Below, one piece after another: positions 9,872 through 34,871 of a DNA stretch of 34,871 nucleotides (positions within the stretch are counted from its first letter, which is position 1; each line of letters begins with the position of its first letter). The stretch lies in the IMG/VR virus record IMGVR_UViG_2541047758_000018. One strand, 5' to 3'. The notes below the pieces were generated by a model. The model searched no databases. It was not told the origin of the DNA and saw nothing but the letters and a program-made list of their open reading frames with translations. The DNA is from a virus. Lineage: Duplodnaviria > Heunggongvirae > Uroviricota > Caudoviricetes. The position numbers were made by a program, and so were the translations under genes.

Positions 9872-9895
9872 GCTTCTTCATGTGCGTAGAAAAGG

Positions 9896-10618: not shown

Positions 10619-10634
10619 AAATGGATGGCATCGC

Positions 10635-11096
10635 ATGGAACTAAAATTTATTGATAACCCTGTGCGATTACAGGCCTTTCTTAACGAGCCAGGCAATACC
10701 GAAAATATTGTTGAGCCGGGGCACACGTACTACATCAAGCCTGATGCGGTATATCTCGGCATCTACGAAGGATTAGTGCTGGCTGGCGTTCATGAAGTGC
10801 GTAACTTCTGGCATAGCGTTGTTGAATGCCATGCGGTGTACGACCCCGGATTCCGTGGTGAATATGCACTGCAAGGGCATCGATTATTCTGCAAATGGCT
10901 TCTCGAAAACTCACCATTCCTTAACAGCATCACTATGGTTCCTGACACCACGAAATACGGACGGGCAATTATCCGTTTGCTTGGCGCTACCCGTGTTGGT
11001 CACCTTGATGATGCTTATATCAGATGTGGTAAACCCGTCGGCGTAACGCTTTATCAGTTAACTCGGCAACAATATAAGGAATTCAGCGAATGTTAA
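10635..11096 (+). CDS. Hypothetical phage-like protein (153 aa), first large gene of ejection-protein-like operon
   Basis: ORF 16 nt downstream of the small regulator-like ORF; no motif recognised; position is analogous to P22 gp14 or T7 gp13 ahead of the ejection proteins. Confidence 0.5.
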   Translation: MELKFIDNPVRLQAFLNEPGNTENIVEPGHTYYIKPDAVYLGIYEGLVLAGVHEVRNFWHSVVECHAVYDPGFRGEYALQGHRLFCKWLLENSPFLNSITMVPDTTKYGRAIIRLLGATRVGHLDDAYIRCGKPVGVTLYQLTRQQYKEFSEC

Positions 11097-13086: not shown

Positions 13087-15414
13087 TGGCACAACTGACA
13101 GAAAAACAGAAAGCCTATTCCCGTCATCTCGATGAAAAATATGGTTTCCCATCAGGGACGATGGAAACATTAGTTGGCAATGAATCTAGTGGTAACGGAA
13201 GTGCCGAGTCACCGAAAGGAGCTAGAGGATTTGCTCAACTGATGCCCTCAGTAATGAGTGATGCTGGTTATCGTGGAACAGATCCGCGCTCACTGCCATT
13301 TGAAAAGCAAATGGATATCGCAGCAAACCATCTCAATAAAGGAATGAAGCGATTTGGTGATATAGGTATGGCATTGGCTGGGTATAATTCTGGCTATGCT
13401 CGTATTAATGCCGTCAGAAACGGTAAATCTACACTGCCAGATGAAACGGCTAATTACGTAAGTAAATTTGCAGATGCTGGAATAATCCCTGATGACAGTG
13501 AAATCTTGCAGTTTGCACAAACCAGTCAACATCGCAATCTTCAGCAGCCTGACTACTCAGAGCTTGATAAAGAAATCTCTCAGGTGGGAGATATTTCTGC
13601 ATGGGAAGCAAAACGTCAGCAATTTAAGAACATAGAAGCAGGACTACCAACAGCCAGTTCATGGGAGCAGAAAAGAGCTCAGTTTCTCGCCGATGAAAAT
13701 GCCGGGGAACCGCAGCAGCAAGTAGCCAAGTCTAACCTTAATCCTGAGATGGAATATCTTTCGCCAGGACTGAAAGCTGCGCCAGAGCAGATGGCCAGAG
13801 GGATTGCTAATATACCGTTTGATGTAATGGACGCAGGCGTGGGGGTAGTCAATGCGGCGCAATCAGCCGGAGCATGGGCAGCTCAGAAGCTTGGTGTGGG
13901 TGATGGCACATACACGCCCATATCACCTGTCTTTCGCCCAGTAGACCAACCTACAGATCCATACGCGCAGGCTGGTGAGCAGCTAGCACCTTACCTTATT
14001 ACAGGATTAGGTGCAGGAAAGGCAGCTACCGCAGCTTCTTCAGTTGCCAACGCTCCACGTGCTGAACGTGCGGCCACAAAGGTGGCTAGTATGTTGGCAG
14101 AAAACCTGCCAGGTACATTGGTGAACGCCCAAAAGAACGGGCAGATCAGCCCAGAAGACCTAGCAAAAGAGACAGGTATTGGCCTAGCAGGATCGCTAGG
14201 AGCACGCGCTTTAATAAAGAGCGGACAGACAGCCAGTGACGTAATGCGAGATGTATTGCGGAGTAATACAAATCAATCAGGCCATGTGTTAGGGGCAGCA
14301 AATACTCTGGAAACCGCCAATGATGTATCGAAAGCAGCGCGTTCTGCCGTAGGCCGAGAGCATATCGCATCGCAGGCATCAAACGTCAGAGATGATGTCG
14401 CTAAGGCGGCGAAAATCACTGGTATTAATATCAACACCCTGACGCCTGGAATGCGCTCAGGTAGTCGTGGAATTGCCCAAGCAGAAGGTGTTCTGGCATC
14501 AACTCCTGGGAATGTTCAGGATGCTCACCTTACGGCCTTCAATGAAATATCCTCAAAGTTGAATAAGCAGTTGTCTGATTTCGGTGCTGAGTCTGGAAGC
14601 GCATCAGAAAAAAGCGCAGCAATTAAAGAGCGCATCATCGCGAGCCTCAGTGATATGAAAACAGCAGAGAATATGGCATGGGCAGAACTGCGAAGCACGA
14701 TGCCACGCGAAAGGATGAAAATGAGTAATGGGATGGCTGTCGTCCAAGCAGAAAAAGCAGCCAATGTTCCACTCAGCCCGGAGATGAAACAGTTTCAGGC
14801 TGCCAACAACCAAGGTGGCGGCATAACCTTCGACGGGATGAAGGCATGGCGTGCTAAGTTTGCTGATGCTGAACAAGCAAACACCCGGGCAGGTAAGGCC
14901 AATGCCGCCCGGATTGCCGGAGAAATGCGCAGAGCTATCACTGATGACATGCGCATCATGGCTGAAAAAGGAAACTTCCTCACAGAATGGCAGAAAGCTA
15001 ACGATCTCTCTAAAAGTTACATTATCGCCAAACAAAATGCCGAATCTGTTTTTGGTCGAGATCTCGCATCAGACGCTATGGTAAGAAAAGGTGCCGATAC
15101 GCTTAAGGCATCCGCAAACACTGGAACGGGAGCTTTTCACCGTCTTATCTCCGCGCTGCCGGAAGCAGAACGCCAACCTGCAATAGCATCTATTCTTCAG
15201 CATGCTGTGGCGCAGGGAGAGAAGGGAGGAATCGGTGAAGAGTCAGGTATCCAGTATTTTGCCAAGCTCATGACCCAGCAGAATGTAAACGCCATCAGTC
15301 GTCATGCGCCAGATCTCGGTAGAATGATGAAAGAGTTCGGTGTACTCGCTAAAGCCAGTACCAGACCGCAGCGATACGTAGAGCGCACGGGAAGAACAAC
15401 TGAGGCTCTCAAAA
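13077..15414 (+). pseudogene. Phage internal-virion/ejection-type protein with N-terminal lytic transglycosylase (SLT) domain, 3'-truncated by IS911-like insertion (native part about 779 codons)
   Basis: SLT signature ESSGNGSAESPKGARGFAQLMP ... ALAGYNSGY near the N-terminus. The ORF reads through the IS end at 15415 and terminates inside the IS at 15569, so the last 51 codons are IS-derived. Confidence 0.7.
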
Positions 15415-15444
15415 TGAAGTGGTCAACAAAAACTGGCCACCGAG

Positions 15445-16628
<1,184 letters not shown>

Positions 16629-18034: not shown

Positions 18035-18766
18035 ATGAATCAACCAATACACAATGCTTACTGGTTATCCCGTTTTGAAAGTATTCTCAACAGTGCCCTG
18101 GCGCAACACCGTGCCGTCTCGTTAATCCGGGTGGATTTACGTTTCCCTGAGTATATGCCTGCCACCATTATGGATACCGATTTAGATTCAGCGGTGATTT
18201 CTCGTTTTTTCGAATCCCTGAAAGCAAAAATTCAGGCTTACCAGCGACATAAACGACGTGCCAACAAGCGTGTGCATGCAACCACTCTGCGTTATTTCTG
18301 GTGCCGGGAGTTCGGCAAGGAAAAAGGCAGGAAACATTATCACGTGATATTACTGCTCAACAAAGATACCTGGTGCTCGCCAGGGGATTTCACCGTTCCT
18401 TCTTCGCTGGCGACGCTGATCCAACTGGCATGGTGCAGTGCTCTGCATCTTGAGCCCTGGCAGGGTAATGGACTGGTTCATTTTTCCAGGCGGACGCCTT
18501 TCCGTAAACCGACATCATCCGATGCTCGCCCTTCTTCCGATGACACGCCTTTACCTGGTGGATGTTCTGATACCCGGAAGGATTCTGACAAAAAGTCTGG
18601 TGGATCCGCTGTGCTCTGGATCAAGCGTGGTGATGTAGAAGCGATGCAGAAAGCCATGGAGAGAGCCCGTTATCTCGTGAAGTATGAGACGAAGCAGCAT
18701 GACGGTTCTGGTCAACGTAATTATGGTTGCAGTCGTGGAGCGGGGCGTCTACTGGATGGCAGGTGA
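18035..18766 (+). CDS. CP4-type prophage protein, YagK/YfjJ-like (inovirus Gp2-like family) - assignment from memory of family features
   Basis: 243-aa protein with RVDLRFP ... KHYHVILLL pattern; tandem paralog arrangement next to an AlpA-like gene as in CP4-6/CP4-57 cryptic prophages. Confidence 0.45.
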   Translation: MNQPIHNAYWLSRFESILNSALAQHRAVSLIRVDLRFPEYMPATIMDTDLDSAVISRFFESLKAKIQAYQRHKRRANKRVHATTLRYFWCREFGKEKGRKHYHVILLLNKDTWCSPGDFTVPSSLATLIQLAWCSALHLEPWQGNGLVHFSRRTPFRKPTSSDARPSSDDTPLPGGCSDTRKDSDKKSGGSAVLWIKRGDVEAMQKAMERARYLVKYETKQHDGSGQRNYGCSRGAGRLLDGR

Positions 18767-18916
18767 ACCCTGTAAAACGGCATCCGGTGCCTGAGCGTAT
18801 GCCACGGTAGGGCGTCAGCCAACGCCCTTACCTCGTATTCTGATCACTCATTCTGAAGTCATGCAACGGTATTTTTATCTGCTTCCGCTCTTGGAAACAC
18901 TCCGTCGGTAAAAACT

Positions 18917-18956
18917 TACCGCCTTGATTAATGATGTGAACCGAAGTCAACGGAGG
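18917..18956 (+). promoter_or_regulatory. Conserved motif, copy 2
   Basis: taccgccttgattaatgatgtgaaccgaagtcaacggagg; shares tgattaatgatgtgaa...gtcaa...gga with copy 1. Confidence 0.45.
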
Positions 18957-19149
18957 TCATTCACCTTAAACCCACCTCAGGAATTTTACACCTGTCAGGT
19001 CTCCTGACTGTCCTGGCATACGACATCTGCCATCCCCGGTTCCACGGTTATTACATCAACAACCTCTGTACACGACGCCTTCAGTTTCACAATACGCTCG
19101 TCTTTCGCTGGCGGGGATGCGTCGTGCGTTTCTATATGGAGCATATCTT

Positions 19150-19722
19150 ATGAATGGTATCCCTCATTTCGACTATAGCCTGGCGCCCTTCTGGCCGTCT
19201 TATCAGAACAAAATCATCGGTGTTCTCAACCGTGCGCTGCGTGAACAGTCCTGCTCCCGGGTACGGCGGATCCTGCTTCGTCTGCCATGTGAATATGACA
19301 CTACCTTCAGTAGCAGAAAGACCTGGTTTGGTATGGACTTTATCGAAACTGTCAGTGCGCTGATGAATGCAAACCCCGGACGTGATCTCTGCTGGCTCCT
19401 GACTCGTCATCCGGAAAAGCCGGAATACCACGTGGTGCTGTGCGTCAGACAGGAGTATTTCGACGGCCCCGAACTGGATCGGTTGATACTGGATGCCTGG
19501 AGCAACGTACTGGGCTTCGCGTCACCGGGTGAAGCGGCACCGTACCAGAAGCAGATAACACGGGATGTGGTGCTGGACAGTCGTTCACCGGACTGCGAAG
19601 ACATCCTCAAAGAGCTGATATGGGCATTCAGTGATTTCGCCCGCGATCGTCGTGGTGTGCGCGATCCGGAAGCCCGTTACCTCGTCGGTAATCCCTGGTA
19701 TCCCGTAGCAGGCCAGCTCTGA
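19150..19722 (+). CDS. Second YagK/YfjJ-like paralog (190 aa); start placed at ATG 19150 (ggag Shine-Dalgarno 9 nt upstream), alternative start 19117
   Basis: RILLRLPCEYD ... EYHVVLCVRQEYF parallels RVDLRFPEY ... HYHVILLLNKD of the upstream paralog. Confidence 0.45.
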   Translation: MNGIPHFDYSLAPFWPSYQNKIIGVLNRALREQSCSRVRRILLRLPCEYDTTFSSRKTWFGMDFIETVSALMNANPGRDLCWLLTRHPEKPEYHVVLCVRQEYFDGPELDRLILDAWSNVLGFASPGEAAPYQKQITRDVVLDSRSPDCEDILKELIWAFSDFARDRRGVRDPEARYLVGNPWYPVAGQL

Positions 19723-19790
19723 AAGCACAGTTCAGCAGATTCACCCGCATTTGCCCAACCTTCATAAATCTCACAAAGGACATTCTGACC

Positions 19791-20024
19791 ATGTTGACCA
19801 CAACAAGCCACGACAGCGTATTGCTGCGTGCTGACGATCCCCTGATCGACATGAACTACATCACCAGTTTCACCGGTATGACCGATAAATGGTTTTACAA
19901 GCTGATCAGTGAAGGCCATTTTCCTAAACCCATCAAACTGGGTCGCAGCAGCCGCTGGTACAAAAGCGAAGTGGAGCAGTGGATGCAGCAGCGAATCGAG
20001 GAGTCACGAGGAGCTGCTGCATGA
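19791..20024 (+). CDS. AlpA-family HTH regulator (second copy in window)
   Basis: NYITSFTGMTDKWFYKLISEGHFPKPIKLGRSSRWYKSEVEQWM matches the AlpA pattern (HTH then FP.P.K.G...RW...EV..W). The true start may be the internal ATG at 19851. Confidence 0.6.
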   Translation: MLTTTSHDSVLLRADDPLIDMNYITSFTGMTDKWFYKLISEGHFPKPIKLGRSSRWYKSEVEQWMQQRIEESRGAAA

Positions 20025-21181: not shown

Positions 21182-22014
21182 ATGCCGCCACGGTGTTTTT
21201 TCAGCAGAGCAGGGCTCTGTTTATCGTTCAACTGTGGTATCCGTTCCCTGGCCTTCACGTTGTGTGCAGTGTTCGTTTTATCCTGCAGCGGCGTTGCCGG
21301 TGATTTACTGAAAATGCCCTGTGGTTTACGGTTAATGGTCAGCGTTACCATCAGTATTGTTACCTCATGCTGTCAATGGAAGTAGTACTCCATCCAGAGC
21401 CTTGGCGACCCCGGGGCTGAAAACGAAACAATAACCCGCGCACAGTGCGAGGAGCCCGGGCGTGAAGCAATCAGCAGGTAATATTAATGGCAAGACCAGT
21501 AGGTTCTTTAAACAAACGAACAATATCAGCAAATACGACAACTCCCGGAGAGGTAAAAAGTTTTTCACTTGAGCACTTCTTAAAAAAATGGAGACGAACA
21601 AAAATGGGGCGACATACCTGGAAAGTATTGCTACCAGATGATGCTAAAAAGCAGAAATAGTGTTCCAGGCCTGAAAGGGATGAGAATCAGTATCTGTGTG
21701 TATTTATAACATCTTCTTGAAGAGGCTGGAGATTGTTAGTCCATTAGTATAATCGATATTCGTGTTCCTGCGAATATGCAGGCTACACCAGATATATGAT
21801 TGCTACCGAATTTCATCAGTTTGATGAAATTACGCATCATACTGCGGGCTTTTCTCATTAACATTAACGAAAGTGAATGGACTCAGACAAGTAGTGACCG
21901 GCGCAATTTCGCTAAGTATCAAATACAAAGAACGTTCTCTTACTTTCTGCGATGGCCTTTCCTTCGGAAAGGAAGTGACGATTAAGTACCGAAAAATGTG
22001 ATACACATATTATT

Positions 22015-22049
22015 TTTATGGCAAATCACCTGATAGGATTTGCCATAAA
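22015..22049. promoter_or_regulatory. Perfect 13-bp-arm palindrome about 25 nt upstream of the H-NS-like gene (candidate operator or hairpin)
   Basis: tttatggcaaatc-acctgatag-gatttgccataaa. Confidence 0.45.
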
Positions 22050-22074
22050 TGAATGAAAAGCTGAGTGTTAATAA

Positions 22075-22509
22075 ATGAGTAAGAAGAAAATTTCTTTTGA
22101 AAATGAAGAGTTCATTACTTACCGGGCATTACTTCTGAGTATTGACTTTGTTAAAAAACTGGTTATAGAAATGTCTGATGAAGATTTAAATAAGGTTAAG
22201 GAAAACTTTGACATAGCTATTCAGCAACGTAATGAGCGAAAGGAAAATATGAAAGCTATCAAATCACTCATGGATGAACATGGTATATCTCTGGAAGATT
22301 TTTATTGTGAATTTGGCAAAAAATCACAGGCAGGCAGAAAAAGTGTGTCAGGAAGGCATAAATACGAGTATGACGATAACGGTAAAAGAATGTACTGGAA
22401 TGGACAAGGACGTCGGCCTAAGGCCATAGCAGAGGCTATAAAAGCCGGAGGTTCTCTTGATGATTTTCTTATATCTCAGGAAGTATCATCTGGTCCTGAT
22501 TATGAATAA
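22075..22509 (+). CDS. H-NS family nucleoid-associated protein paralog (144 aa), island-borne
   Basis: C-terminal DNA-binding signature YEYDDNGKRMYWNGQGRRPKAIAEAIKAGGSLDDFLI matches H-NS Y.Y.DENGE.KTWTGQGRTP..I.....LDDFLI; N-terminal coiled-coil-like region; AT-rich gene. Confidence 0.8.
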   Translation: MSKKKISFENEEFITYRALLLSIDFVKKLVIEMSDEDLNKVKENFDIAIQQRNERKENMKAIKSLMDEHGISLEDFYCEFGKKSQAGRKSVSGRHKYEYDDNGKRMYWNGQGRRPKAIAEAIKAGGSLDDFLISQEVSSGPDYE

Positions 22510-22925
22510 CAGCAATATATATTTTGATCTGTATTAATATCAAGAAATATATAGTAAACACTTCTCCGGAGTTGATATATTATCGGCAGGGAATGAAAAT
22601 GCCTGACTTCATGCTAATATATGGCAATAAAGATAAATGAGTTATACTGTAGAGTTATGAAATAACGATAGTGATAAGAGCCAGTCAGCGAGACTGATTG
22701 TTTTATCTGTACTGGCAGCAGGCAGTTTACCATGGCTTACTGCTTCAGCTTCTGAATCTGTGTTGATGATATTTATCTGTTTATAAGGCAAGGCTTGTCT
22801 CTGTGAGTTGGTAATCTTTATCCCGGGATAGCTTTTCTCTGTATTTTTAGTATAGCCAGTAATCGATTACTCCTGTATGCGCAAAAATATAGCAACTCAT
22901 CCATGGTAAACATGTCAGCTTTTAC

Positions 22926-23498
22926 CTACATATAGATAAATTCATATTTCACGATATACGACCCAATTTTATTAACACGAGCTGTTACCCATACACCTGT
23001 CATCCCCTGTTTATGGTGACTGCGCGGGAACTCTTTATTTGTACAAAGTTGTATCCATCTGGAAGTGTTTTGATCTTTCAACCAGAGTCCCGCTTCACAA
23101 TGTCCATACTTTCCTCTTGATGGTCCCGGAAAAACAACATCATATTCAGATTCATAGCTAATAACCTTATCCGGAAAAAGATAAACACAGACATCGTAAC
23201 AGTTCAGACTCAGTATAAATCCAAGACAAAATCCCCCCGTGAATGCATTTAATAAATACTTTAATGTTCTGTTAAAGGTGCGGATATAAAATGCATAAAT
23301 AAAAGAAAGAGAACCGGTGGTTATACCGGTGCAAAAATATGTTGTCCATTCAGGTACCGTATTTTGTAAAACAGTATAATGAGATATGGCGGATGCCCAC
23401 AACATATACCAGCACAAACCACCTGCAATAAGATATGTTATTGCTGTGGAAAACCATTTCCTGTATTTATTTTCAGGGTGATTGTTTTTGCCCATCAA
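22926..23498 (-). CDS. Hypothetical membrane protein (190 aa, about 4 predicted TM segments plus C-terminal soluble domain)
   Basis: Hydrophobic stretches ITYLIAGGLCWYMLWASAI, GITTGSLSFIYAFYI, FTGGFCLGFILSL; AT-rich; lies 97 bp downstream of, and co-directional with, the dGTPase gene. Confidence 0.5.
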   Translation of the reverse strand: MMGKNNHPENKYRKWFSTAITYLIAGGLCWYMLWASAISHYTVLQNTVPEWTTYFCTGITTGSLSFIYAFYIRTFNRTLKYLLNAFTGGFCLGFILSLNCYDVCVYLFPDKVISYESEYDVVFPGPSRGKYGHCEAGLWLKDQNTSRWIQLCTNKEFPRSHHKQGMTGVWVTARVNKIGSYIVKYEFIYM

Positions 23499-23595
23499 CG
23501 CATTTCCAGAATATTTAAAAATAACCTGTCACCGAAACAGAATAAAGGCGCAATAACCATAACGGGAAAATATGCGCCTCTGGTAATCGACAGTG

Positions 23596-24849
23596 TTACT
23601 TCAGACAGTGAGTTTCCCATTCCTTGACTGCAAATGTATCCATCATACCTGAAATATAGTCAACCACTGCTCGTTTTTTGCTGATTTTAAATATATAGGA
23701 ATCTGGTTGGGGTAAGGTGAATTTAAGTTCAGGAGGCAGAAATTTATAATTCTCTCCTTCATTGTAAAAGTCATATAAATCCCTGATTATTTTATTTCCC
23801 CTGAACTCATAGGTGAGGATATTACGTTTTCGCATGATGACTTTAAAGAGAAGTTTTTTGAGCCCTTCGGATAACGCATTCAGTTTCCCGAATCCCAGTT
23901 CCTGAAAACCATTCAGGTTCGTTACTACAGAAATATCTGCAACGAGGCGATTGACAATATTTGAAGTTAACTCCTTGCGGAATATGATGGCAAATTCTTC
24001 TGAGGTTTTCAGTAAGTTAGCCTGAAAAGCGGTGTTTCTCGACTGAGTAACGATTTCCCTGAACTGTTCCCTCGCTCCCCGGAATTCGTCAGAAATCTGA
24101 AACTCATATTCAATATCTTCAATCGTGACCATGTTCCTGCTAAGGGCATCTTCCAGGTCATGCGCGGCATAGGCAATCTCATCCGCGAGATCCATTATCT
24201 GCGCATCAATCGTTTTCTCTCCGGGATTCAGATCGAGCTGATTTTCAGCAAGCAGGTTAATGTAAAAATAGTAATCATCATCATAAATGAACTTGCCGGC
24301 AGTAGCTGCAGCGCGGGGGATGGGATACTTAACAACCGAAAGTAAACTACGGTGAGTCAGATTTAATCCGTTGCAGTATGAAAATTTCTTCTCCAGTTTT
24401 CTCAGGATACGTAGCGCCTGTGCATTGCCTTCATAGCCGCCGATTTCTTCAGACAGTTCATTAAGCAGTTTTTCACCGGAATGACCGAAAGGAGGATTTC
24501 CGATGTCATGCGCCAGCGCTGCCAGTTCAACCACCACCGGGTTAACCAGTTTGAGGTCTGACGCGATACTTCGGGCGATCTGAGCAACCTCAAGACTGTG
24601 CGTTAATCTGTTTCTGTTGAATTTTTCAGGATCAATTTCAAAAAGTTGCATCTTTCCCTGCAGCCTGCGAAATGATGATGAATACAGAATACGCGCATAA
24701 TCCCGTTGATAATTATCCCGGCTTCTTGTTTCACCATCGGGGGACGGGTGCTCTCTGGTATCAGCAAGCGCACTGATAAGTTTTTGTTCCTGCTCTTGCG
24801 CAAATTCTTTTAATTCATTGCAGTACATATTTCTTCCTTTCTGGAGCAT
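23596..24849 (-). CDS. dGTP triphosphohydrolase-family HD-domain protein (short form, 417 aa) - probable antiphage dNTP-depleting dGTPase
   Basis: Aligns by eye to E. coli Dgt motifs: FRRLQGKMQLF (IRRLQQKTQVF), RLTHSLEVAQIARSIA, LAHDIGNPPFGHSGE, YEGNAQALRIL, MDLADEIAYAAHDLEDA, DYISGMMDTFA; shorter than housekeeping Dgt (505 aa). Confidence 0.85.
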   Translation of the reverse strand: MLQKGRNMYCNELKEFAQEQEQKLISALADTREHPSPDGETRSRDNYQRDYARILYSSSFRRLQGKMQLFEIDPEKFNRNRLTHSLEVAQIARSIASDLKLVNPVVVELAALAHDIGNPPFGHSGEKLLNELSEEIGGYEGNAQALRILRKLEKKFSYCNGLNLTHRSLLSVVKYPIPRAAATAGKFIYDDDYYFYINLLAENQLDLNPGEKTIDAQIMDLADEIAYAAHDLEDALSRNMVTIEDIEYEFQISDEFRGAREQFREIVTQSRNTAFQANLLKTSEEFAIIFRKELTSNIVNRLVADISVVTNLNGFQELGFGKLNALSEGLKKLLFKVIMRKRNILTYEFRGNKIIRDLYDFYNEGENYKFLPPELKFTLPQPDSYIFKISKKRAVVDYISGMMDTFAVKEWETHCLK

Positions 24850-24978
24850 GTTACCAAATCAGAATACCGGATGAACAAAACTGGTGGCTACATCCTGTAG
24901 GGATTATGTATTAGTAAGCTCTGGCCATTAGTGCCATTTCAGGTTATGTGATCCTACTCACGTAATATGGACACAGGC

Positions 24979-25845
24979 CTAAGTGAGGTTCTGGTTTTCA
25001 AATTGTTCCGGACTGAGGCCGCCACACCAACTGTGCCGCCGCCACCGATTGTAATCACATTCGATATAATTAAACACCGTTGCCCGCATTATTTCCCGGC
25101 TGATAAAGTGTTCTCCATGGATACATTCCACTTTCAGCGAATGAAAGAAGCTTTCCACGCAGGCATTATCGTAGCAGCAACCTTTTGCGCTCATACTTCC
25201 ACGCAGATTATGCCGCTTCAGTTGCGCCTGATAATCTGCTGAACAGTACTGGCCTCCACGGTCCGTGTGAACGATAACGTTCCGGGGCCTCTTACGCCGC
25301 CACAGCGCCATCTGCAGGGCATCGCAGGCCAGTTGCGCCGTCATGCGTGGCGACATTGACCAGCCAATAACGGCACGTGACCACAGGTCAATGACCACTG
25401 CCAGATACAGCCAGCCTTCATCTGTACGTAAGTACGTGATGTCTCCTGCCCACTTCTGGTTCGGGCCACTGGCGTAAAAATCCTGCTCCAACAGATTTTC
25501 TGACACAGGCAGGCCGTGTGCGCGGTAGCTGACCGGGCTGAACTTCCGGGAGGCCTTTGCCCTCAGTCCCTGACGGCGCAGGCTTGCCGCCACGGTTTTT
25601 ACGTTAAAGGGGTAACCCTGAGCACGCAGTTCATCCGTCAGGCGTGGGGCACCGTAACGCTGTTTTGACCGGGTAAAAGCCGCGAGGACAACGCTGTCGC
25701 AGTGTTGGCGGAACTGCTGACGCGTGCTTATCCTTGTCCGCCGCTGACACCACGTATACCAGCCGCTGCGGGCCACCCGGAGCACGCGGCACATTGCTTT
25801 GATGCTGAACTCAGCCTGATGTTTTTCAATAAAGACATACTTCAT
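24979..25845 (-). CDS. insF: IS3 transposase OrfB (InsF)
   Basis: [32 protein letters not shown] ... [34 protein letters not shown] ... HTDRGGQY is the IS3 InsF sequence as I recall it. Confidence 0.9.
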
Positions 25846-26150
25846 TTCAGGCGCTTCGCGAAGTATGTCGCGGCCTTTTGGAGGATAGCCAGCTCTTCAT
25901 CCCGTTCTGCCAGCTGGCGTTTGAGACGTGCAATCTCGGTAGACATCTCCAGTTCACGTTCAGAAGACGTCTGCTGATTTTGCTGTTTACTGCGCCAGTT
26001 GTAGAGTTGTGATTCATACAGGCTGAGTTCACGGGCTGCGGCAGTAACACCGATGCGTTCAGCAAGCTTCAGGGCTTCACTGCGAAATTCAGGCGAATGC
26101 TGTTTACGGGGTTTTTTACTGGTTGATACTGTTTTTGTCATGTGAGTCAC
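25842..26150 (-). CDS. insE: IS3 transposase OrfA (InsE)
   Basis: [52 protein letters not shown]...; start may be the internal ATG (MTKTV). Confidence 0.9.
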
Positions 26151-26297
26151 CTCTGACTGAGAGTTTACTCACTTAGCCGCGTGTCCACTATTGCTGGGTA
26201 AGATCACCCTGTGAACCATGTTGATATTGATACTATATTGACTATATGCCATACAGGTGGTAATGATTAGTTACTACCATACAGGAAAAGGTAGAAA

Positions 26298-27278
26298 ATG
26301 ACTCTTTTGGTAACGGCTGAGTGTGTTGACGATCTGATAAACGATGTTCATCAAGCTATCCTAGCGGATGGACTCAGTAACGATCCTACAAAAGGATCAA
26401 CTCTAGAGATTCTTGGTGCCTATCTTGTCCTTACCGACCCCCGCCGAAGAATAAGTAGAACAGAATCCCGAGGAAAACTAATTAGTTGCTTAGGTGAATT
26501 TCTGTGGTATCTCTCAGCTCAGAACGATCTTGAGTTTATAAAACACTTCATACCACGTTACGCTGAATCCGCTGAGTCAGATGGGAAAATACATGGTGGT
26601 TACGGGCCACGGTTGTTTAATATGCGTGGTTTATATAATCAGCTAAAAAATGTCATCAACCTTTTGCAGGAGAAAAAACCTACCAGACGTGCAGTAATAC
26701 AGCTTTTCGATGCCTCAGACTTGGTGCCCTCAAAAACTGAACAGCGAGAATACGTAGATATTCCTTGTACAATATCTATGCAGTTTATTGTCAGATGTGA
26801 AGAGCTGCATCTATTTGTTTGTATGCGTTCTAACGATGCCTTTATGGGGCTGCCTCATGATGTATTTGCGTTCACGATGCTACAGGAATTAGTTGCCCGC
26901 TTGATAGGATGCGAATTGGGTCACTATCATCACTTTGTATCCAGCCTACATCTCTATAAAAATGATTTAGAAAAAGTGAAGGCTCTTCAGAAAGAGGGGT
27001 TCATGAGCACCCTACCAGTCATGGGATCGATGCCTGAAATGCATTCCTTAGATGATATCTTACCCCTGCTTGAGGCAGAAAAAGCTCTTCGAGAGAATAA
27101 GGAATTTGATATTGACACTACTTCCTTGAATGACTACTGGAAGGATTTATTGCGTATATTAAAAATCCACTTTTTGTTACGTTCACATACACCCAACCAC
27201 AAAGGACTAGCCTTCCAAGAGTTGGCTGCAATGAAAAATCAGGAATATCGGTTTATTTTTGAAGGAAGACTACAATGA
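26298..27278 (+). CDS. Thymidylate-synthase-fold pyrimidine C5-modifying enzyme (ThyA / dCMP-hydroxymethylase-like), 326 aa
   Basis: Aligns by eye to E. coli ThyA: LISCLGEFLWYL (IIHELLWFL), RRAVIQLFD (RRIIVSAWN), nucleophile Cys in IPCTISMQF (APCHAFFQF), MRSNDAFMGLPHD (QRSCDVFLGLPFN), HLY (THLY). The specificity Asn is replaced by Asp, as in dCMP hydroxymethylase. Confidence 0.8.
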   Translation: MTLLVTAECVDDLINDVHQAILADGLSNDPTKGSTLEILGAYLVLTDPRRRISRTESRGKLISCLGEFLWYLSAQNDLEFIKHFIPRYAESAESDGKIHGGYGPRLFNMRGLYNQLKNVINLLQEKKPTRRAVIQLFDASDLVPSKTEQREYVDIPCTISMQFIVRCEELHLFVCMRSNDAFMGLPHDVFAFTMLQELVARLIGCELGHYHHFVSSLHLYKNDLEKVKALQKEGFMSTLPVMGSMPEMHSLDDILPLLEAEKALRENKEFDIDTTSLNDYWKDLLRILKIHFLLRSHTPNHKGLAFQELAAMKNQEYRFIFEGRLQ

Positions 27279-28219
27279 AAAGACATAATCAAATCAGTCA
27301 GCTGGTTAGTAATTTGCAAAATTTTAGCCGCAATGAACACAACCTAAATGGTCTAAGTTCTCCTGCCTGCTTTGATGTTTTAGCCTGTCAGATTATCGAC
27401 AGTATACGTCGTATACGCTATGTGGAAACTCTTGCATTACGGACCGATTATATGACTCCGTTACGAAAAGAGCCGAATTCTGATGTTTTTGATCCTCTCC
27501 GCGCTGCCTGCCTTTATCTTCGTGACAACAATTACGATGAAGCCTGCTGGCTGGTTTTCCTTGCCACACATTTCGGCAAGAGTAACAAAACCGGCTGGAT
27601 TTTGTGTCGAGATATATACAGTGGACTCGGTACACAAACGTGGACATGGGATACGATAACTGATGACTTTGCTGCTTTTGAACAATGGTTCGCCAGCGTC
27701 TCTGATGAGTTGACAGCTAACAGTAGCCTAAGACAATATGGTAACCATCGGAAATATGAAACGAAGAAATATCACTCTCGTCGTTCAATACCTGCGGTTT
27801 TTCGCTCTTACATCGGATTCATTGGTGCTACACACAGTCATGAGGCTAGGTTTGCAGAGGCCAAGAGCTTTTCATCTTCACCAGAATCTTTATTCGAACT
27901 ATTGTATTCAGGGCTAAATGCCGTGATCTCATTTGGACGAACCGCAAAATTTGATTACCTAACTATGCTCAAGAAAACGGGACTTCTGGATGTAGAGCCG
28001 GGTCATGCTTTTCTGAATGGAGCAACCGGGCCCCTTCAAGGAAGCCGGCTACTTTTCAGCAATAGCCGGACTGCTGGTGACACAATAGACGTATTGAATG
28101 AAAAACTAGCTGACCTTGCGGCAATTATTCCTGCACCCTACTTGAGAATGCAGGTTATTGAAGATGCGTTGTGCAACTGGCAGAAATCACCTGACCGTTA
28201 TGTCTATTTCGGCGGCTGA
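27275..28219 (+). CDS. Hypothetical protein (314 aa), translationally coupled partner of the ThyA-like enzyme; function unknown
   Basis: ATG overlaps the ThyA-like stop (ATGA at 27275-27278); no motif I can assign with confidence. Confidence 0.6.
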   Translation: MKRHNQISQLVSNLQNFSRNEHNLNGLSSPACFDVLACQIIDSIRRIRYVETLALRTDYMTPLRKEPNSDVFDPLRAACLYLRDNNYDEACWLVFLATHFGKSNKTGWILCRDIYSGLGTQTWTWDTITDDFAAFEQWFASVSDELTANSSLRQYGNHRKYETKKYHSRRSIPAVFRSYIGFIGATHSHEARFAEAKSFSSSPESLFELLYSGLNAVISFGRTAKFDYLTMLKKTGLLDVEPGHAFLNGATGPLQGSRLLFSNSRTAGDTIDVLNEKLADLAAIIPAPYLRMQVIEDALCNWQKSPDRYVYFGG

Positions 28220-28221
28220 TA

Positions 28222-29304
28222 TCAGACGATATCTTCTTTACGGAATCTCACTTTAAACCGATTAAGGTGAGAAAAAGGTATATTACCTTCATGCTGCAAA
28301 TATCCCAGTACGATCCCTTTGGATACCCCCATTTTCCTAGCTAACCGGATGATCTCTTTCCAATGCCGGACACCATAGCGACTAAGTTGCTGCCGGTATT
28401 CTTCTGGGATAAGAACATCAACGGCAAATTTATCTGCTTCCTTTTCCTCTTCCGACGAAAGACTATCTTTACCTTCTACGCGAACTCGGACAGCTTCATG
28501 CAAGATGAGATGCCCAATCTCATGAAACAGCGTAAACCAAAAATGGTCATCGGTCAGATAACGGAAACTCATGACTAGGGTTGCGCGATCTGGTGTAAAA
28601 AAGCAGGTAGCACCACTTGCCCGACATCCCTTTGGCGTTGGCAACACAACGAGAGAAACTCCAGCAGTGGCGAGAAGGTCGCGAATGTAAGGGATAAAAA
28701 TCCTCATGTCGGGTTCATTTGTAGCTTTGCGCAGTTCTGGCAACAATGCTATCAGCACCTCTTTATCCCATACAGCACAGTTTTGGTTTGAGGTAAGTTG
28801 TGCAGCCCTAGTCAGCCACACCAAATCGGCCATAGGCTCGGTTGCCAGATTAAGAGATTTACGAAAAGCGACCAAAGGAGCATCTGACTGAATTTTATAA
28901 AAAAAATCATTGACGGAATTTATTCCGAAAAACGATAGGCAGTGCTGGAATTTACTTTCCCGAGTTGTAGTTTTGGGGATCCAACCAAACTCCATCATAT
29001 CACGTACAGGCAATGATTCGAGCCAATCATTATTCACTTTCTCGAGGTATCCAATTTGCTGGCGATAAGCGACTTCGCGCTTGATCCAGAAGTCTGTCGA
29101 TACGTTGAATAACTCCTCAAGCTTACAAGCCAGAGACTCATTGAGTCGGATTTTTCCTTCAAGAAGTTGCTGACCCCGGATAAGAGACAATCCAATCCTC
29201 TTACTCAGTTCTTCACCAGAAAGCCCATGTTCATCCATTAGATCTATAATTGTATCACCGGGTGGAGATACCCAGTCAGGCTGGAAGTCCTGCGTAACTA
29301 TCAT
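28222..29304 (-). CDS. HTH (XRE-type) + ImmA/IrrE-family zinc metallopeptidase fusion protein (360 aa)
   Basis: N-terminal HTH GDTIIDLMDEHGLSGEELSKRIGLS; C-terminal HExxH motif FHEIGHLILHE with downstream EKEAD, typical of the ImmA/IrrE (COG2856) peptidase domain. Confidence 0.75.
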   Translation of the reverse strand: MIVTQDFQPDWVSPPGDTIIDLMDEHGLSGEELSKRIGLSLIRGQQLLEGKIRLNESLACKLEELFNVSTDFWIKREVAYRQQIGYLEKVNNDWLESLPVRDMMEFGWIPKTTTRESKFQHCLSFFGINSVNDFFYKIQSDAPLVAFRKSLNLATEPMADLVWLTRAAQLTSNQNCAVWDKEVLIALLPELRKATNEPDMRIFIPYIRDLLATAGVSLVVLPTPKGCRASGATCFFTPDRATLVMSFRYLTDDHFWFTLFHEIGHLILHEAVRVRVEGKDSLSSEEEKEADKFAVDVLIPEEYRQQLSRYGVRHWKEIIRLARKMGVSKGIVLGYLQHEGNIPFSHLNRFKVRFRKEDIV

Positions 29305-29627
29305 TTCACGTCACCTATGAACACTAACCGTATCCGGCTAACTCGGGACCAGTTAATTGTATTATCTTGATTTTTGGGCTGAACTGTATTCCCACAGACA
29401 AATCCCATTTTTACATCACCGAGAATGGTAATTGTAATACACTCTTCCCCATCCTCAAAGCAGACCTCCGGCGAACCTACGGGCAACAGTAATATGTTGT
29501 CTGTCACGGAAAGATCGGAAAGTCGCGAGCGTAGTCTTGATGCCACTTTGTCACCAAAGATCTCATTTGCCTCATGCATACTCTCGCAAATAGTCCTTAA
29601 CTTCTTGCTTTGAAAGGTAATGAACAA
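29301..29627 (-). CDS. Small protein (108 aa) overlapping the start of the HTH-peptidase gene; possible toxin-like partner (RelE/HigB-like?), unverified
   Basis: 4-nt overlap with the downstream HTH-peptidase gene implies co-translation; weak resemblance to killer-protein N-termini (MFITFQSKKLRTI...); family call is a guess. Confidence 0.35.
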   Translation of the reverse strand: MFITFQSKKLRTICESMHEANEIFGDKVASRLRSRLSDLSVTDNILLLPVGSPEVCFEDGEECITITILGDVKMGFVCGNTVQPKNQDNTINWSRVSRIRLVFIGDVK

Positions 29628-29728
29628 AATTATCCACTTTTATTTTTCTTGGTTGCTACGTTTATAGCAAACTCAACGCTCATTCACAAAATGAGATGTA
29701 GCGAATTAATGGACTCTGCACATATTAA

Positions 29729-30034
29729 ATGTTAATGATGGACTTAAAATCACGGATTCGTAAGGGAAACATGAAAGGTAAACATCAAGACACTAAAGCC
29801 CTGTCTGACGTGCTAGCGGAAATGCAACGGCAGGATGCCAAATGGGGGGCAGACCGTAATCAAGATCCTTTTATCTGGGGAGCGATTCTCGGAGAAGAGG
29901 TGGGAGAATTTCATCAGGCTGTCCTCCATGATCGTTTTGGTGGTAAAGCAGCCGGTACCAGTAGGGAGGAAGCAGTACAAATTGCTGCTGTTGCACTGCA
30001 AATCATCGAATATTATGATCGCGTAATAGATTGA
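29729..30034 (+). CDS. Small all-alpha protein, possibly MazG-like nucleotide pyrophosphohydrolase (101 aa; true start may be internal at 29771)
   Basis: ILGEEVGEFHQAV (E-E-x-x-E motif) and REEAVQIAAVALQIIEY resemble the MazG/NTP-PPase metal-binding helices. Confidence 0.35.
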   Translation: MLMMDLKSRIRKGNMKGKHQDTKALSDVLAEMQRQDAKWGADRNQDPFIWGAILGEEVGEFHQAVLHDRFGGKAAGTSREEAVQIAAVALQIIEYYDRVID

Positions 30035-30336: not shown

Positions 30337-30957
30337 TCATGCCAGTGGACTCATTACCCTCTGCCTAAGTAGTTCAAATCCGGCTCGACCATACATCAGA
30401 CGTTTCAGCATCTTCAGGCGATTTACATGACCTTCGACAACACCGTTACTCCAGCGGCTGCTGGTTGCCTCACATATAGCCGCGGCATCAGCTTCCATCC
30501 CCGCAGCCACGCGCCGAAGTTCTGCTGAACCGTTTTCGTGGACTCGAGTGAACCAACTGCTTAGATTTGATTTATTTGGGGTTTTCAGAATACGGTAGAA
30601 CTCAAGTACTAGTTGCTGCGCTATTTTCAGCGCCGGTTCTTTTTCACACATCAGACTAATAAATCGGGAAGCATAATTTTCTTCACCCCTGATTATTATC
30701 CAGGGCATCAACCAGCGGCTTACCCGGGACACTGAAGGAAGTCTGGCGGCAGTAGTAACTGGTGGGTTCCAGCCTTTACGCCATTTGGCAACAGCATCCC
30801 TGACGATGGTTTCACTGCCTGTAACCCCCGGCCACCATTTCCCGCCATATCCAGTCGCTGGTGTGCTGAATTGGTCATGTATGAAGGAAGATATCAATGG
30901 TGGTATCTCCCTTTCAAAAGGAAGTGAAAAGCTTGATGCCTGCTGCCAGGCAATCAA
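30337..30957 (-). pseudogene. ISL3-family transposase remnant (C-terminal part intact in frame, N-terminal part decayed)
   Basis: C-terminus WSNGVVEGHVNRLKMLKRLMYGRAGFELLRQRV fits the ISL3 C-terminal pattern SNG..EG.N.[KR].K.LKR..YG...F; the upstream two thirds of the ORF are not transposase-like, and short broken ORFs (30977-31174, 31265-31474) follow on the same strand. Confidence 0.55.
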
Positions 30958-31454: not shown

Positions 31455-34400
31455 TTGATGGAGCAGTCTCTCAATTTTGAAATGTTGCGCAGCCAGTGGC
31501 CGGAACTGGCTGAACTCGCGTGTATGGCGGAACGCTATGTTCACTCCGATCCGGAAAGTTGTCTGGTCAAGCTGCGCAACTACACTGAATTGATGGTGCG
31601 CTGGTTGTATCGTCAGGAGCGGTTGCCGGAAGGTATTAAGGCTAATCTTTACGATTTAATGAATGCTGATGTCTTTACCAGCATGATGCCGGAAGCCATC
31701 ATCATGAAAATGGATGCGCTGCGTATCCATGGCAACCGTGCCGCGCACGGCGGACGTATCAAAGCTAAAGATACTTACTGGCTGCTCAAAGAAGCGTATT
31801 TGTTGGGAATTTGGCTGTATGTTCGCTACGCCCACGGTAATGTTGATGACTGCCCCAAATTTACACTCCCTCCATTAACACAATCTTCAGGTCGTGCAGA
31901 TGAAAAACGTCTGGAAGATGCAATCAGGGCTCAGGATGAAAGCCGTGAGCGCGAACTGGCGCTGCAACGCGCACTACAGCAAGAACAGGAAAAGGCCGAA
32001 CACCTCACTCAACGCCTGAATGAAGCCAGAGCGCGTAACCAGCATGTTGCCGATATTCTCTCTATTGATGAAGCGGAAACCCGCCGTCGCCTGATTGACT
32101 CTCGCCTGCTTGCTGCTGACTGGAATGTAGGCGAAGGCCTTAAAAATACCGATCAGGTTACGCAGGAACATCCCGTTAAAGAACAACCTACCGCGACCGG
32201 AGACGGTTATGCGGACTATGTCTTGTGGGATGAGGCACACAAACCGCTGGCGGTGGTGGAAGCAAAAAAAACCAGCGTCAATGCCGAGCAAGGACGAATT
32301 CAGGCCCGGCTGTATGCAGACTGGCTGGAAAAAGAATACGGCCAGCGTCCGATCATCTTCTACACCAACGGCTATGATATCTGGCTGTGGGATGACCATA
32401 AAACTCATGGTTATCCCCCGCGTCGGGTGTTTGGCTTCTACAGCAAGGAAAGCCTGCAATATCTTATTCAACAGCGTGAAACCCGTCTTCCGCTGAACAG
32501 TGTGCCGCACGTAAAAGATAACGAAGGTAAGGCCGTTGCCGGACGTTTGTACCAGCTTGAAACCATTGCCCGTGTCAGCGAGCGGTTTACCAACAAATAC
32601 CGGCAATCGCTAATTGTTCAGGCTACGGGTACAGGCAAAACCCGCGTGGCAATAGCGCTAAGCAAACTGATGATTGATGCCCGCTGGGTAAAACGCGTCC
32701 TGTTTCTTTGCGACCGCAAGGAACTACGTAAACAGGCGGCGAATGCCTTTAATCAATTCACCAATGAGCCGCTGTATGTGGTCGGGAAATCGAAAAAAGC
32801 AGACAGGCAGAATGCTAGGATCTACATCGCCACCTATCCTGGTATGATGAAAATCATGGACCATTTCGATGTTGGTTATTTCGATTTGATCATCGCCGAT
32901 GAATCCCATCGCTCTATCTACAACGTTTACGGCGATCTGTTTAAGTATTTTGATGCCCTCCAGATTGGCCTGACGGCCACGCCGATTGACATGGTGAGTA
33001 AAACCACTTTCGGCCTGTTTGGTTGTGAAGGACGTATTCCTACCGCCAACTACAGCCTGGAAGATGCCATCGCCGATAACAATCTGGTTCCCTATGAGGT
33101 TGTCACGCACACCACAGAATTCCTGCGCGAAGGCATCAAACGGGAGAAATTAAGCGACGCACAAATCCGCGAGCTGGAAGAACAAGGCATAGATCCCAAT
33201 ACGCTGGAGTTTGATGGCAAGGCGCTGGATGAGGCGATCTACAACAAAGACACCAACCGCTATATCCTGCGTAACCTGATGGAAAATGGCCTGAAAGATC
33301 GGGACGGCCAGTTGCCAGGTAAAACCATCATTTTCGCCCGTAACCACAAACACGCGCTGCTGTTGAATGAATTATTCGACGATATGTACCCGCAGTTTGC
33401 CGGGCGCTTCTGCCAGGTCATCGACAATTACGATCCCCGCGCCGAGCAACTGATTGATGATTTTAAAGGGCTGGATGAAAGCACCAACAAAGAGCTGACC
33501 ATCGCTATCTCCGTTGACATGCTCGATACCGGTATTGATGTCCCGGAAATTGTGAATCTGGTCTTTGCCAAACCGGTCAAATCAAAAGTGAAGTTCTGGC
33601 AGATGATTGGCCGTGGTACGCGCCTCTGTCCGGGGTTGTACGGTTACGACGATAACGGCAAACCTCTGGATAAACAGAAATTCCGCATTTTCGATCACTG
33701 GGGCAATTTTGAGTATCACGAACTGCATACCGAAGAGGCCGAAGTCACAGCGACAAAATCGCTTGCACAAAAACGCTTCGAAGCGTGGGTTATGCTGGGG
33801 GCCGCTGCGCAACGTAAATTCGACAAACAGGCGGTGGATTTAGTTGCTCACCAGCTACGCGAGCAAATCAATGCACTGGATGAAAAGTCGATTGCCGTCC
33901 AGGAAAAGTGGCATCAAAAAGCGCAGTACAGCGATGAAAAAGTGCTGCGCCAGCTTTCCCCGAAAACACAGCAGGATTTGCTATCTGTCCTGGCCCCGCT
34001 GATGCAGTGGCTGGACGTGCGCGGGCAAAGCGACGCTATGCGCTTTGATATGGATATTCTGGCGGCGCAAACTGCCCGTTATACCAACCCGGAAGAGCTG
34101 GATGTGCTCTGGCCGGTCATCGTCGAAAAAGTGGAGCGCCTGCCGCCGCATTTGGCGCAAGTCCAACAGCAAGGACCGCGGATCAATCAGCTTCGTGATT
34201 TAGGCTGGTGGAAGCAGGCCAGCCTGGAAGAGCTGGAAGATATCCGCATTCATCTGCGCGGCATCATGCACCTGATGGAAAAAGACGCGACGCCGAAATT
34301 TGGTTCGATACAGGTGGATATTACCGAAGATGCGAACCTGATTCAGACGGAAAACCGTAAAACCAACATCCGCTCGATTGACTTCAAACTCTATCGCCAG

Positions 34401-34871
34401 CAGGTGCAGGGAGCGCTGGAGCCGCTGTTCCAGCAAAATCCGGTGCTGAAGAAAATCCGCAACGGCGAGCCTGTGACGCAAAGCGAGCTGGATGAACTGG
34501 CTAAACTGGTGCTGATCCAGAACCCTAACGTTGATATCCGGGCACTGAAAGAGTTCTACCCGCAGGCGACCGCCAGCCTGGATAAACTATTGCGTACCAT
34601 CATCGGGATGGACAGCGACGCGGTGGAAGTGCGCTTTGCTCAGTTCGCCGCTGATAACAGCCTGACCAGCCAGCAATTGCGCTTCCTGTCATTGCTGAAA
34701 AACCACATTCGCGATTACGGCACCATTGAAATGCGGCAGCTCTTTGAACAGCCTTTTACGCATATCCACAACGAAGGCGTTACCGGTGTGTTCCCTGATA
34801 TAGAACAGATCGCCCGCCTACAAAAGATAGTCGAAGAGCTGGGTGTTGTGACCGACGCAGCAACGGTATAA
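31455..34871 (+). CDS. hsdR: Type I restriction-modification system restriction (R) subunit, HsdR (1138 aa)
   Basis: Aligns to EcoKI HsdR from memory: N-terminal domain MMEQSLNFEMLRSQ (MMNKSNFEFLKG), nuclease motif YADYVLWDEAHKPLAVVEAKK (FADYVLFVGLKPIAVVEAKR), helicase motif I VQATGTGKTRVAIAL, motif II IIADESHRS, later TATP and MIGRGTRL. Ends at the last base of the window, so hsdM/hsdS are expected downstream. Confidence 0.9.
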   Translation: MMEQSLNFEMLRSQWPELAELACMAERYVHSDPESCLVKLRNYTELMVRWLYRQERLPEGIKANLYDLMNADVFTSMMPEAIIMKMDALRIHGNRAAHGGRIKAKDTYWLLKEAYLLGIWLYVRYAHGNVDDCPKFTLPPLTQSSGRADEKRLEDAIRAQDESRERELALQRALQQEQEKAEHLTQRLNEARARNQHVADILSIDEAETRRRLIDSRLLAADWNVGEGLKNTDQVTQEHPVKEQPTATGDGYADYVLWDEAHKPLAVVEAKKTSVNAEQGRIQARLYADWLEKEYGQRPIIFYTNGYDIWLWDDHKTHGYPPRRVFGFYSKESLQYLIQQRETRLPLNSVPHVKDNEGKAVAGRLYQLETIARVSERFTNKYRQSLIVQATGTGKTRVAIALSKLMIDARWVKRVLFLCDRKELRKQAANAFNQFTNEPLYVVGKSKKADRQNARIYIATYPGMMKIMDHFDVGYFDLIIADESHRSIYNVYGDLFKYFDALQIGLTATPIDMVSKTTFGLFGCEGRIPTANYSLEDAIADNNLVPYEVVTHTTEFLREGIKREKLSDAQIRELEEQGIDPNTLEFDGKALDEAIYNKDTNRYILRNLMENGLKDRDGQLPGKTIIFARNHKHALLLNELFDDMYPQFAGRFCQVIDNYDPRAEQLIDDFKGLDESTNKELTIAISVDMLDTGIDVPEIVNLVFAKPVKSKVKFWQMIGRGTRLCPGLYGYDDNGKPLDKQKFRIFDHWGNFEYHELHTEEAEVTATKSLAQKRFEAWVMLGAAAQRKFDKQAVDLVAHQLREQINALDEKSIAVQEKWHQKAQYSDEKVLRQLSPKTQQDLLSVLAPLMQWLDVRGQSDAMRFDMDILAAQTARYTNPEELDVLWPVIVEKVERLPPHLAQVQQQGPRINQLRDLGWWKQASLEELEDIRIHLRGIMHLMEKDATPKFGSIQVDITEDANLIQTENRKTNIRSIDFKLYRQQVQGALEPLFQQNPVLKKIRNGEPVTQSELDELAKLVLIQNPNVDIRALKEFYPQATASLDKLLRTIIGMDSDAVEVRFAQFAADNSLTSQQLRFLSLLKNHIRDYGTIEMRQLFEQPFTHIHNEGVTGVFPDIEQIARLQKIVEELGVVTDAATV

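Follow-up and report, generated by a model that had tools for sequence, protein, structure and literature searches.

A likely single-gene defence cassette for a Vdg-type dGTP triphosphohydrolase in an Escherichia coli island

Single-gene bacterial defence enzymes that deplete deoxyguanosine triphosphate (dGTP) are already established, and the closest relative of the one considered here comes with both a structure and phage data. That relative, Vdg, is an anti-phage dGTPase from Vibrio cholerae O1 that assembles into octamers (PDB 9VWA, 9VWC and 9VWG; Shi et al., Nat Commun 2026, PMC13519002); it cleaves dGTP, protects Escherichia coli from phiX174, T2, T4, T5, T6 and T7, and needs its octamer interface for activity (PMC13519002). 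Ogmios is a dGTPase cassette carried in the V. cholerae superintegron (Darracq et al., bioRxiv 10.1101/2024.07.02.601686), and its homologues, selected by those authors at E < 1e-73, give no match to the DefenseFinder dGTPase model (10.1101/2024.07.02.601686). Clover, in turn, provides an example of a dGTPase with a partner gene (PMC12265719). Here we describe a dGTPase gene in a 34,871-nt stretch of DNA held as a viral record in IMG/VR (IMGVR_UViG_2541047758_000018), referred to in its whole length as the window. A first-pass annotation had read this gene as a short-form dGTPase of the defence type, flanked by the insertion sequence IS3 and followed by a membrane-protein gene that might be an accessory component, an effector or unrelated cargo. 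The reading we favour, and hold to be likely, is that of a single-gene mobile cassette (23593-24948) for a Vdg-type, 410-amino-acid (aa), HD-domain dGTP triphosphohydrolase with a role in phage defence.

The protein carries the Pfam domains HD and HD_assoc and scores 317 bits against the dGTP_triPase model TIGR01353. Its closest solved structure is that of V. cholerae Vdg (PDB 9VWA; phmmer E = 2e-114, 386 bits), to which it aligns over the full length, residues 1-407 against 1-390, with 55% identity; the other structures score 168 bits (Sp-dGTPase, 9P8W), about 92 bits (CloA) and 80 bits (E. coli Dgt). Mapping onto Vdg, which followed the residues shown to be important in PMC13519002, found all 14 of the catalytic and dGTP-binding residues kept: the metal and catalytic residues H77, H107 and D108 and the dyad H116/E119 are identical, as are nine dGTP contacts (Q61, L62, D224, E341, Y220, N135, K167, Y168 and K179). 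At the octamer interface, 9 of the 14 mapped residues are identical and the other 5 conservatively replaced, and 1 of the 4 contacts of the Vdg 16-mer is kept.

These affinities separate the protein from the housekeeping enzyme. Identity to E. coli Dgt is 28.5%, as compared with about 38% to Sp-dGTPase on conserved fragments, and the housekeeping equivalog (NF003429, PRK04926) gives 155 bits, short of its cut-off of 405. The protein had been described as about 90 aa shorter than housekeeping Dgt, and the difference from the 505 aa of Dgt is indeed 88-95 aa. In a neighbour-joining (NJ) tree, a simple distance tree without support values into which Sp-dGTPase was entered as two fragments, the protein falls within an Enterobacterales subclade that also holds sequences from Proteus, Edwardsiella, Pantoea, Klebsiella, Morganella, Xenorhabdus, Providencia and Cronobacter. 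This subclade is sister to that of Vdg; Sp-dGTPase falls on their side of the root, and E. coli Dgt with its orthologues from Leclercia and Pantoea on the opposite side, so that the grouping away from housekeeping Dgt, which the first-pass annotation had named as its own check, is what the phylogeny returned. With an anti-phage enzyme as its nearest solved relative, a place beside Vdg and Sp-dGTPase and a presence in 6% of E. coli, the assignment to the defence type holds. These comparisons support viewing the protein, as far as its sequence can tell, as an accessory, island-borne defence-type dGTPase, distinct from housekeeping Dgt.

The gene itself is intact; its length had been overstated. 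The program-listed open reading frame (ORF) runs from 23596 to 24849 on the minus strand and encodes 417 aa. We place the true start at Met8, the ATG at 24828, giving 410 aa, because the AAGGA Shine-Dalgarno sequence and ATGTAC start show no variation across 9 relatives in an alignment of upstream regions, because Met8 is the start in all close homologues and because the RefSeq annotation likewise gives 410 aa. An identical protein is found in E. coli 83972 (WP_000271620.1). The two parts of the cassette are as follows.

23596..24828, minus strand: dGTPase coding sequence, HD-domain dNTP (deoxynucleoside triphosphate) triphosphohydrolase of the Vdg type, 410 aa from Met8
24829..24948, minus strand: native 5′ region of the dGTPase, with the AAGGA Shine-Dalgarno sequence 6-10 nt ahead of the ATG

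The boundaries of the cassette come from comparison with its relatives. DNA homology begins at the stop codon (23593-23606), extends up to 24917-24941 and goes nowhere beyond; within these limits the gene and its 5′ region are conserved across genera at 70-80% DNA identity, and about 113 bp of the 5′ region recur in relatives carried by Proteus prophages, among other elements. Homology limited to the gene and about 113 bp of upstream DNA is the signature of a single-gene cassette moving with its own 5′ region.

The gene is accessory in distribution and recurs on different mobile elements. Matches occur in 344 of 5426 complete E. coli genomes (6%), and the E. coli cassette itself is carried by one IncI NDM-5 plasmid, pNDM5_LS003. 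A related gene, matching at about 69% nucleotide identity along part of its length, appears in 78 Klebsiella plasmid records, and a Proteus mirabilis homologue (81% identity) lies directly after a prophage integrase. Stx2c-converting phages carry an unannotated dGTPase of 64% identity about 2 kb from the prophage end (at 4001-5224 of the stretch examined in phage Stx2c_EH0430); E. coli thus has two members of the subclade on different mobile elements. Elsewhere the neighbours are repeatedly of defence type. The Klebsiella variicola homologue (75%) sits in an island next to a 2092-aa NACHT protein, a homologue of 82% identity adjoins a SNIPE nuclease, the Pantoea homologue (77%) is followed by a SIR2_2 protein, and the Cronobacter homologue (66%) adjoins genes for a PfkB-deoxyribosyltransferase (PfkB-NDT) and a QueC-like protein. 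In the window, hsdR of a type I restriction-modification system begins at 31455, 6.6 kb from the dGTPase; neighbourhoods of this kind, with restriction-modification genes, were the route by which Tal et al. (2022) found defence dGTPases.

The window is E. coli DNA, and its positions 22000-28300 are found again in 186 complete E. coli genomes at 98.4-99.9% identity; in strain 4FM the locus lies within an integrative island, adjoining cadCBA. The dGTPase gene is AT-rich, as had been noted, with a GC content of 0.427 against 0.471 for the whole window (0.372 for the membrane-protein gene and 0.535 for IS3). The cassette is located in a variable part of an E. coli island, beside other defence-type cargo.

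If the protein behaves as its relatives do, the coding sequence and about 113 bp of its own upstream DNA would form a self-contained unit (23593-24948) whose product splits dGTP into deoxyguanosine and triphosphate. By homology with the Vdg octamer, the enzyme is probably an oligomer whose dimer interface forms an allosteric nucleotide pocket. Expressed in an infected cell, it would drain dGTP during phage replication and so protect the cell population. The cassette would be cargo that moves horizontally on prophages, plasmids and integrative islands, the membrane-protein gene downstream would be an independently acquired passenger, and IS3 would have come later, into the spacer between the cassette and a neighbouring module of TS-like, aGPT-Pplase3, HTH-M78 and MazG-like genes.

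Several observations weigh against this reading. First, the regulatory parts of the Vdg model are not all present. Seven of the 8 residues of the dAMP allosteric pocket are identical to those of Vdg; the exception is R31, here a Glu, which in Vdg touches the phosphate and keeps out di- and triphosphates (PMC13519002). The C-terminal tail with Vdg Y400 and K402 is absent as well, 3 residues as against 12 following the last aligned position. With R31 replaced by Glu and the tail missing, octamer formation and control by dAMP are not assured; a bolder reading, which we think unlikely, is that the Enterobacterales subclade, with its altered pocket and lacking the tail, is assembled or triggered unlike Vdg. 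Second, the standard classifiers do not settle the matter in favour of defence. Against the NCBIfam model antiphage_dGTPase (NF041026) the protein scores 284.7 bits, below the curated cut-off of 400; a Vdg-like protein likewise falls under it, and the two have the same score profile (antiphage_dGTPase about 270-285 bits versus housekeeping PRK04926 about 137-155). The PADLOC dGTPase model PDLC02374 does match (365 bits, E = 1.4e-109), but the match is non-discriminating because the same model also takes housekeeping E. coli Dgt (237 bits, E = 1e-70). The identity of about 38% to Sp-dGTPase lies under the 45% line that Tal et al. drew for defence-island enrichment. Third, Vdg and the enzymes of Tal et al. 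were assayed under strong induced expression, and the promoter scan of 24829-24948 on the minus strand found no sigma-70 site, in a scan that as a whole did not rise above shuffled sequences; inspection of the conserved upstream alignment by eye found no convincing -35/-10 pair.

Fourth, damaged alleles are common. An N-terminally truncated allele of 337 aa (P0006), which has lost the first metal-binding His, numbers 390 members against 730 for the intact form and accounts for about one in three database sequences for this E. coli gene. A 270-aa frameshifted allele (P0047) also exists, and the RefSeq annotations of strains 4FM and EC2 flag a frameshift in the gene. The gene is dispensable, and in some of the population it may be decaying.

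On these grounds the dGTPase could serve an end other than defence, trimming the dNTP pool for its mobile element, or could be silent, decaying cargo. The truncated and frameshifted alleles, the AT-rich composition beside an H-NS-like gene, the lack of a clear promoter in the scan and the finding of Tal et al. that enrichment near defence genes does not extend to homologues with less than 45% identity to Sp-dGTPase all fit such a reading. We nevertheless regard it as unlikely: in the window the reading frame is intact and every catalytic residue present, the cross-genus conservation of gene and 5′ region comes with an invariant Shine-Dalgarno sequence and start, the neighbours in other genomes are the defence-type genes described above, and the closest characterised relative protects against six phages.

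The DNA upstream of the cassette raises the question of a larger system, for which the following features are needed.

24949..26206, minus strand: complete IS3 (IS3 family, IS3 group), 1258 bp, with orfA (25842-26150) and orfB (24979-25845) both intact, in the same orientation as the dGTPase
26298-27278, plus strand: TS-like gene, the first of the neighbouring module (26298..30033)
27275-28219, plus strand: aGPT-Pplase3/ADDT (amino-acid:DNA transferase) gene, neighbouring module
28222-29304, minus strand: gene for an HTH-Peptidase_M78 (HTH-M78) regulator, convergent, neighbouring module
29770-30033, plus strand: MazG-like gene, neighbouring module

The IS3 copy, which RefSeq labels 'IS3-like element IS3 family transposase, programmed frameshift', has imperfect terminal inverted repeats of 40 nt and no clean 3-bp target duplication, its flanks being ATG and CCC. 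Its end had been put about 100 bp upstream of the dGTPase, and it lies 99 bp from the first ATG (that of the 417-aa ORF) and 120 bp upstream of the Met8 ATG, or 7-31 bp from the upstream limit of the conserved cassette. In strain EC2, which lacks IS3, the dGTPase and the TS-like gene are divergent and 206 bp apart, from which we conclude that IS3 inserted into a divergent dGTPase/TS-like spacer. The two IS3 flanks, joined, exceed the IS-less EC2 site by 5 bp, and the EC2 assembly has several indels in the dGTPase; the site may be the ancestral empty site or the product of imprecise excision. IS3 is present in all genomes with both flanks except one, and it also acts as a point of recombination, at which at least two island variants diverge. 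In strain 83972, which has the dGTPase but not the module, IS3, IS1 and fec genes lie on the far side; in strain 1409, which has the module but not the dGTPase, unrelated DNA lies on the dGTPase side.

That IS3 might drive or disrupt expression of the dGTPase had been suggested at the outset. Disruption is unlikely, because the native 5′ region of about 113 bp that travels with the gene is intact, and the effect of IS3 is probably benign. Read-through or an outward promoter may carry transcription from IS3 into the dGTPase, which is possible given that the two share an orientation and that the terminator scan called none between them.

The module beyond IS3 is to our mind the more interesting object in this stretch than the dGTPase. 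Its TS-like, aGPT-Pplase3 and HTH-M78 genes are kept together in 22 of 23 IMG/VR loci, down to 30-35% identity, and the MazG-like gene joins this trio in the closer loci. In the TS-like protein the catalytic Cys and RSxD motif are retained, and Asp replaces Asn177 of ThyA. By analogy with T4 dCMP hydroxymethylase, this Asp suggests a cytosine substrate. The HTH-M78 regulator matches PADLOC PD-Lambda-2_B at 3e-30, and capP and RmrA more weakly; PADLOC lacks models for both the TS-like and the aGPT protein. The DefensePredictor paper predicts systems with aGPT-Pplase, MazG and HTH proteins, which are unvalidated there. From its gene content and conservation, the module is a coherent, tightly conserved candidate system of its own.

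Might the dGTPase be one arm of a larger nucleotide-pool system that includes this divergent module, with a shared control region of 206 bp that IS3 has split? The direct divergent arrangement in EC2, the concern of the dGTPase and all module genes with deoxynucleotides and the resemblance of the HTH-M78 protein to defence-system regulators would suit it. Yet the dGTPase lies within 8 kb of the module in none of the 23 viral-collection loci, a TS-like or aGPT gene is near none of about 100 loci of dGTPase relatives (80 genome and 21 viral), E. coli variants carry either half alone (83972 and 1409), and the DNA homology of the cassette to its relatives ends at the spacer. The module is thus kept without a dGTPase nearby and is not functionally tied to it. 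Another form of the idea is that the dGTPase and the module were once co-regulated through the 206-bp spacer as a combined locus for nucleotide-pool defence, and that the now near-fixed IS3 has uncoupled the dGTPase and supplies or alters its transcription; this form we think quite unlikely, and the standing two-armed system improbable.

There remains the membrane-protein gene, which lies on the other side of the cassette, with a spacer between.

23496..23595, minus strand: spacer between the dGTPase stop and the membrane-protein gene, with a hairpin and then a U-rich run
22926..23495, minus strand: membrane-protein gene, outside the system, 189 aa from the ATG at 23495

The positions, shared strand and gap first given for the two reading frames agree with the ORF list, which has the membrane-protein ORF at 22926-23498 on the minus strand (190 aa), 97 bp from the dGTPase ORF. 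Four transmembrane helices had been claimed for its product; we count three hydrophobic spans (residues about 15-37, 51-71 and 81-107), followed by a C-terminal beta domain of about 85 residues with two invariant Cys, which the charge distribution places probably in the periplasm. Nothing in Pfam, NCBIfam or PADLOC matches the protein significantly, and comparison of its structural model (pLDDT 87.6) gave no informative neighbour. The family is small: one search returned 57 clusters, and a profile search of 1.84 billion proteins returned 59 representatives, which have the same architecture throughout and no fusions, as against at least about 8000 scored matches for the dGTPase.

Whether the two genes belong together was examined from both sides. 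The genome loci of dGTPase relatives, 80 in number and gathered with an alignment as the query, include, in the matches listed, 3 close relatives and about 12 at middle distance; they were supplemented by individual contig contexts and by viral and metagenome scans. A membrane-protein homologue occurs within 8-10 kb of the dGTPase in none of the 80 genome loci and none of the 21 viral loci, nor in six further contig contexts of dGTPases with 63-82% identity. Conversely, Enterobacter, Pantoea and a third lineage have membrane-protein homologues (67-73% identity) that stand among apparently ordinary chromosomal genes, with no dGTPase. The metagenome scan returned 74 membrane-protein loci. Twenty are of the island type (at least 95% identity), and all 18 of these with room for it have the dGTPase; none of the remaining 54 (44-75% identity) has it, and 43 of the 54 extend at least 2 kb on the relevant side.

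Within E. coli the two genes also come apart. Full-length dGTPase genes are found in 318 genomes and full-length membrane-protein genes in 204, so that at least 114 genomes have the dGTPase with a mere half of the membrane-protein gene; in about 131 complete genomes only the 5′ half of the membrane-protein gene remains, broken near window position 23204-23207 and joined to a pap fimbrial remnant, and the dGTPase is full length. A half gene of the same form stands beside the intact dGTPase on pNDM5_LS003. At the DNA level, the homology of the membrane-protein gene to its relatives stops at its own ORF, as that of the dGTPase does at its stop codon, and the spacer at 23496-23595 shares no DNA homology with the sequences that flank relatives of either gene, which marks it as the junction of two separately acquired pieces. 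The hairpin and U-run that follow the dGTPase stop might be a terminator, but they fold no better than shuffled sequences (z = -1.13), and the terminator and promoter scan called neither between the two genes.

The pairing of the two genes thus exists solely in one E. coli island lineage (at least 95% identity). Unrelated cargo, the alternative offered in the first-pass annotation, is borne out by this pattern of co-occurrence, and the accessory or effector role fails, the gene being absent near diverged dGTPase homologues and half-deleted in many dGTPase-bearing genomes. A co-transcribed two-gene system, in which the membrane protein would serve as an effector, an anchor or a sensor, is close to refuted and highly improbable, even though the genes share a strand with only 97-100 bp between them, lie side by side in the island lineage wherever the locus has room and form clusters of like size (730 members for the dGTPase, 734 for the membrane protein). 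The membrane protein is an orphan inner-membrane passenger acquired separately from the dGTPase, and its gene should be left out when the dGTPase system is annotated or cloned.

Other features of the window describe the island around the cassette. An H-NS/StpA-like gene at 22075-22509 is convergent to the membrane-protein gene; within 18035-20024 lies a YagK/YfjJ ('inovirus Gp2') gene, with an ORF at 19791-20024 that RefSeq gives as a helix-turn-helix regulator. These three genes look like the backbone of an integrative island. Beyond the module are a remnant of an ISL3 transposase at 30337-30957 and the type I R subunit (31455-34871), which has an N-terminal DUF4145 domain and whose ORF continues past the window end. 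At the opposite end, positions 1-15569 carry a P4-type integrase, AntA, Ash and a DUF927/Toprim primase, and then homologues of three P22 ejection proteins, gp7, gp20 and gp16, with an SLT domain in the gp16 homologue; this region looks like a satellite-like integrated element with ejection-protein genes.

Set against the systems known so far, the dGTPase described here is closest to Vdg. Both are stand-alone, single-domain proteins of about 400 aa with an identical HD motif, His/Glu dyad and dGTP contacts; they differ in the Glu at R31, the missing Y400/K402 tail, the 16-mer contacts (1 of 4) and the separate Enterobacterales subclade of the present protein. Ogmios is likewise a single-gene anti-phage dGTPase, and its membership of the same clade, or its identity with Vdg, is a lead to follow. 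Sp-dGTPase and Ec-G177 (Tal et al. 2022; NF041026; 9P8W) share the fold, the chemistry, single-gene defence and a position near restriction-modification genes, but are hexamers of 455-463 aa with about 38% identity, on fragments, to the protein here; the E. coli G177 dGTPase (455 aa, with 55% identity to Sp-dGTPase) and ours come from distinct genes. Clover (CloA dGTPase with CloB nucleotidyltransferase; PMC12265719) also employs a defence dGTPase. By contrast, CloA is distant (about 92 bits), the neighbours here are the membrane-protein gene, the H-NS-like gene and IS3, and no nucleotidyltransferase of the Pol-beta type, the Clover partner, adjoins the dGTPase. E. coli Dgt (b0160, 505 aa; PDB 4X9E) belongs to the same superfamily of HD-domain dGTP triphosphohydrolases; unlike the present enzyme it is 95 aa longer, has only 28.5% identity to it and occupies a fixed chromosomal place (between mtn and degP in K-12).

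This comparison bears on how such genes are called. Curated models (NCBIfam antiphage_dGTPase and, reportedly, that of DefenseFinder) miss the Vdg-type clade, and that of PADLOC also takes housekeeping Dgt, so that automated calls of dGTPase defence need a filter by score or clade. The E. coli pan-genome holds at least three accessory dGTPase types: the Sp type, represented by Ec G177; CloA; and the Vdg type described here, with its cousin in Stx2c prophages.

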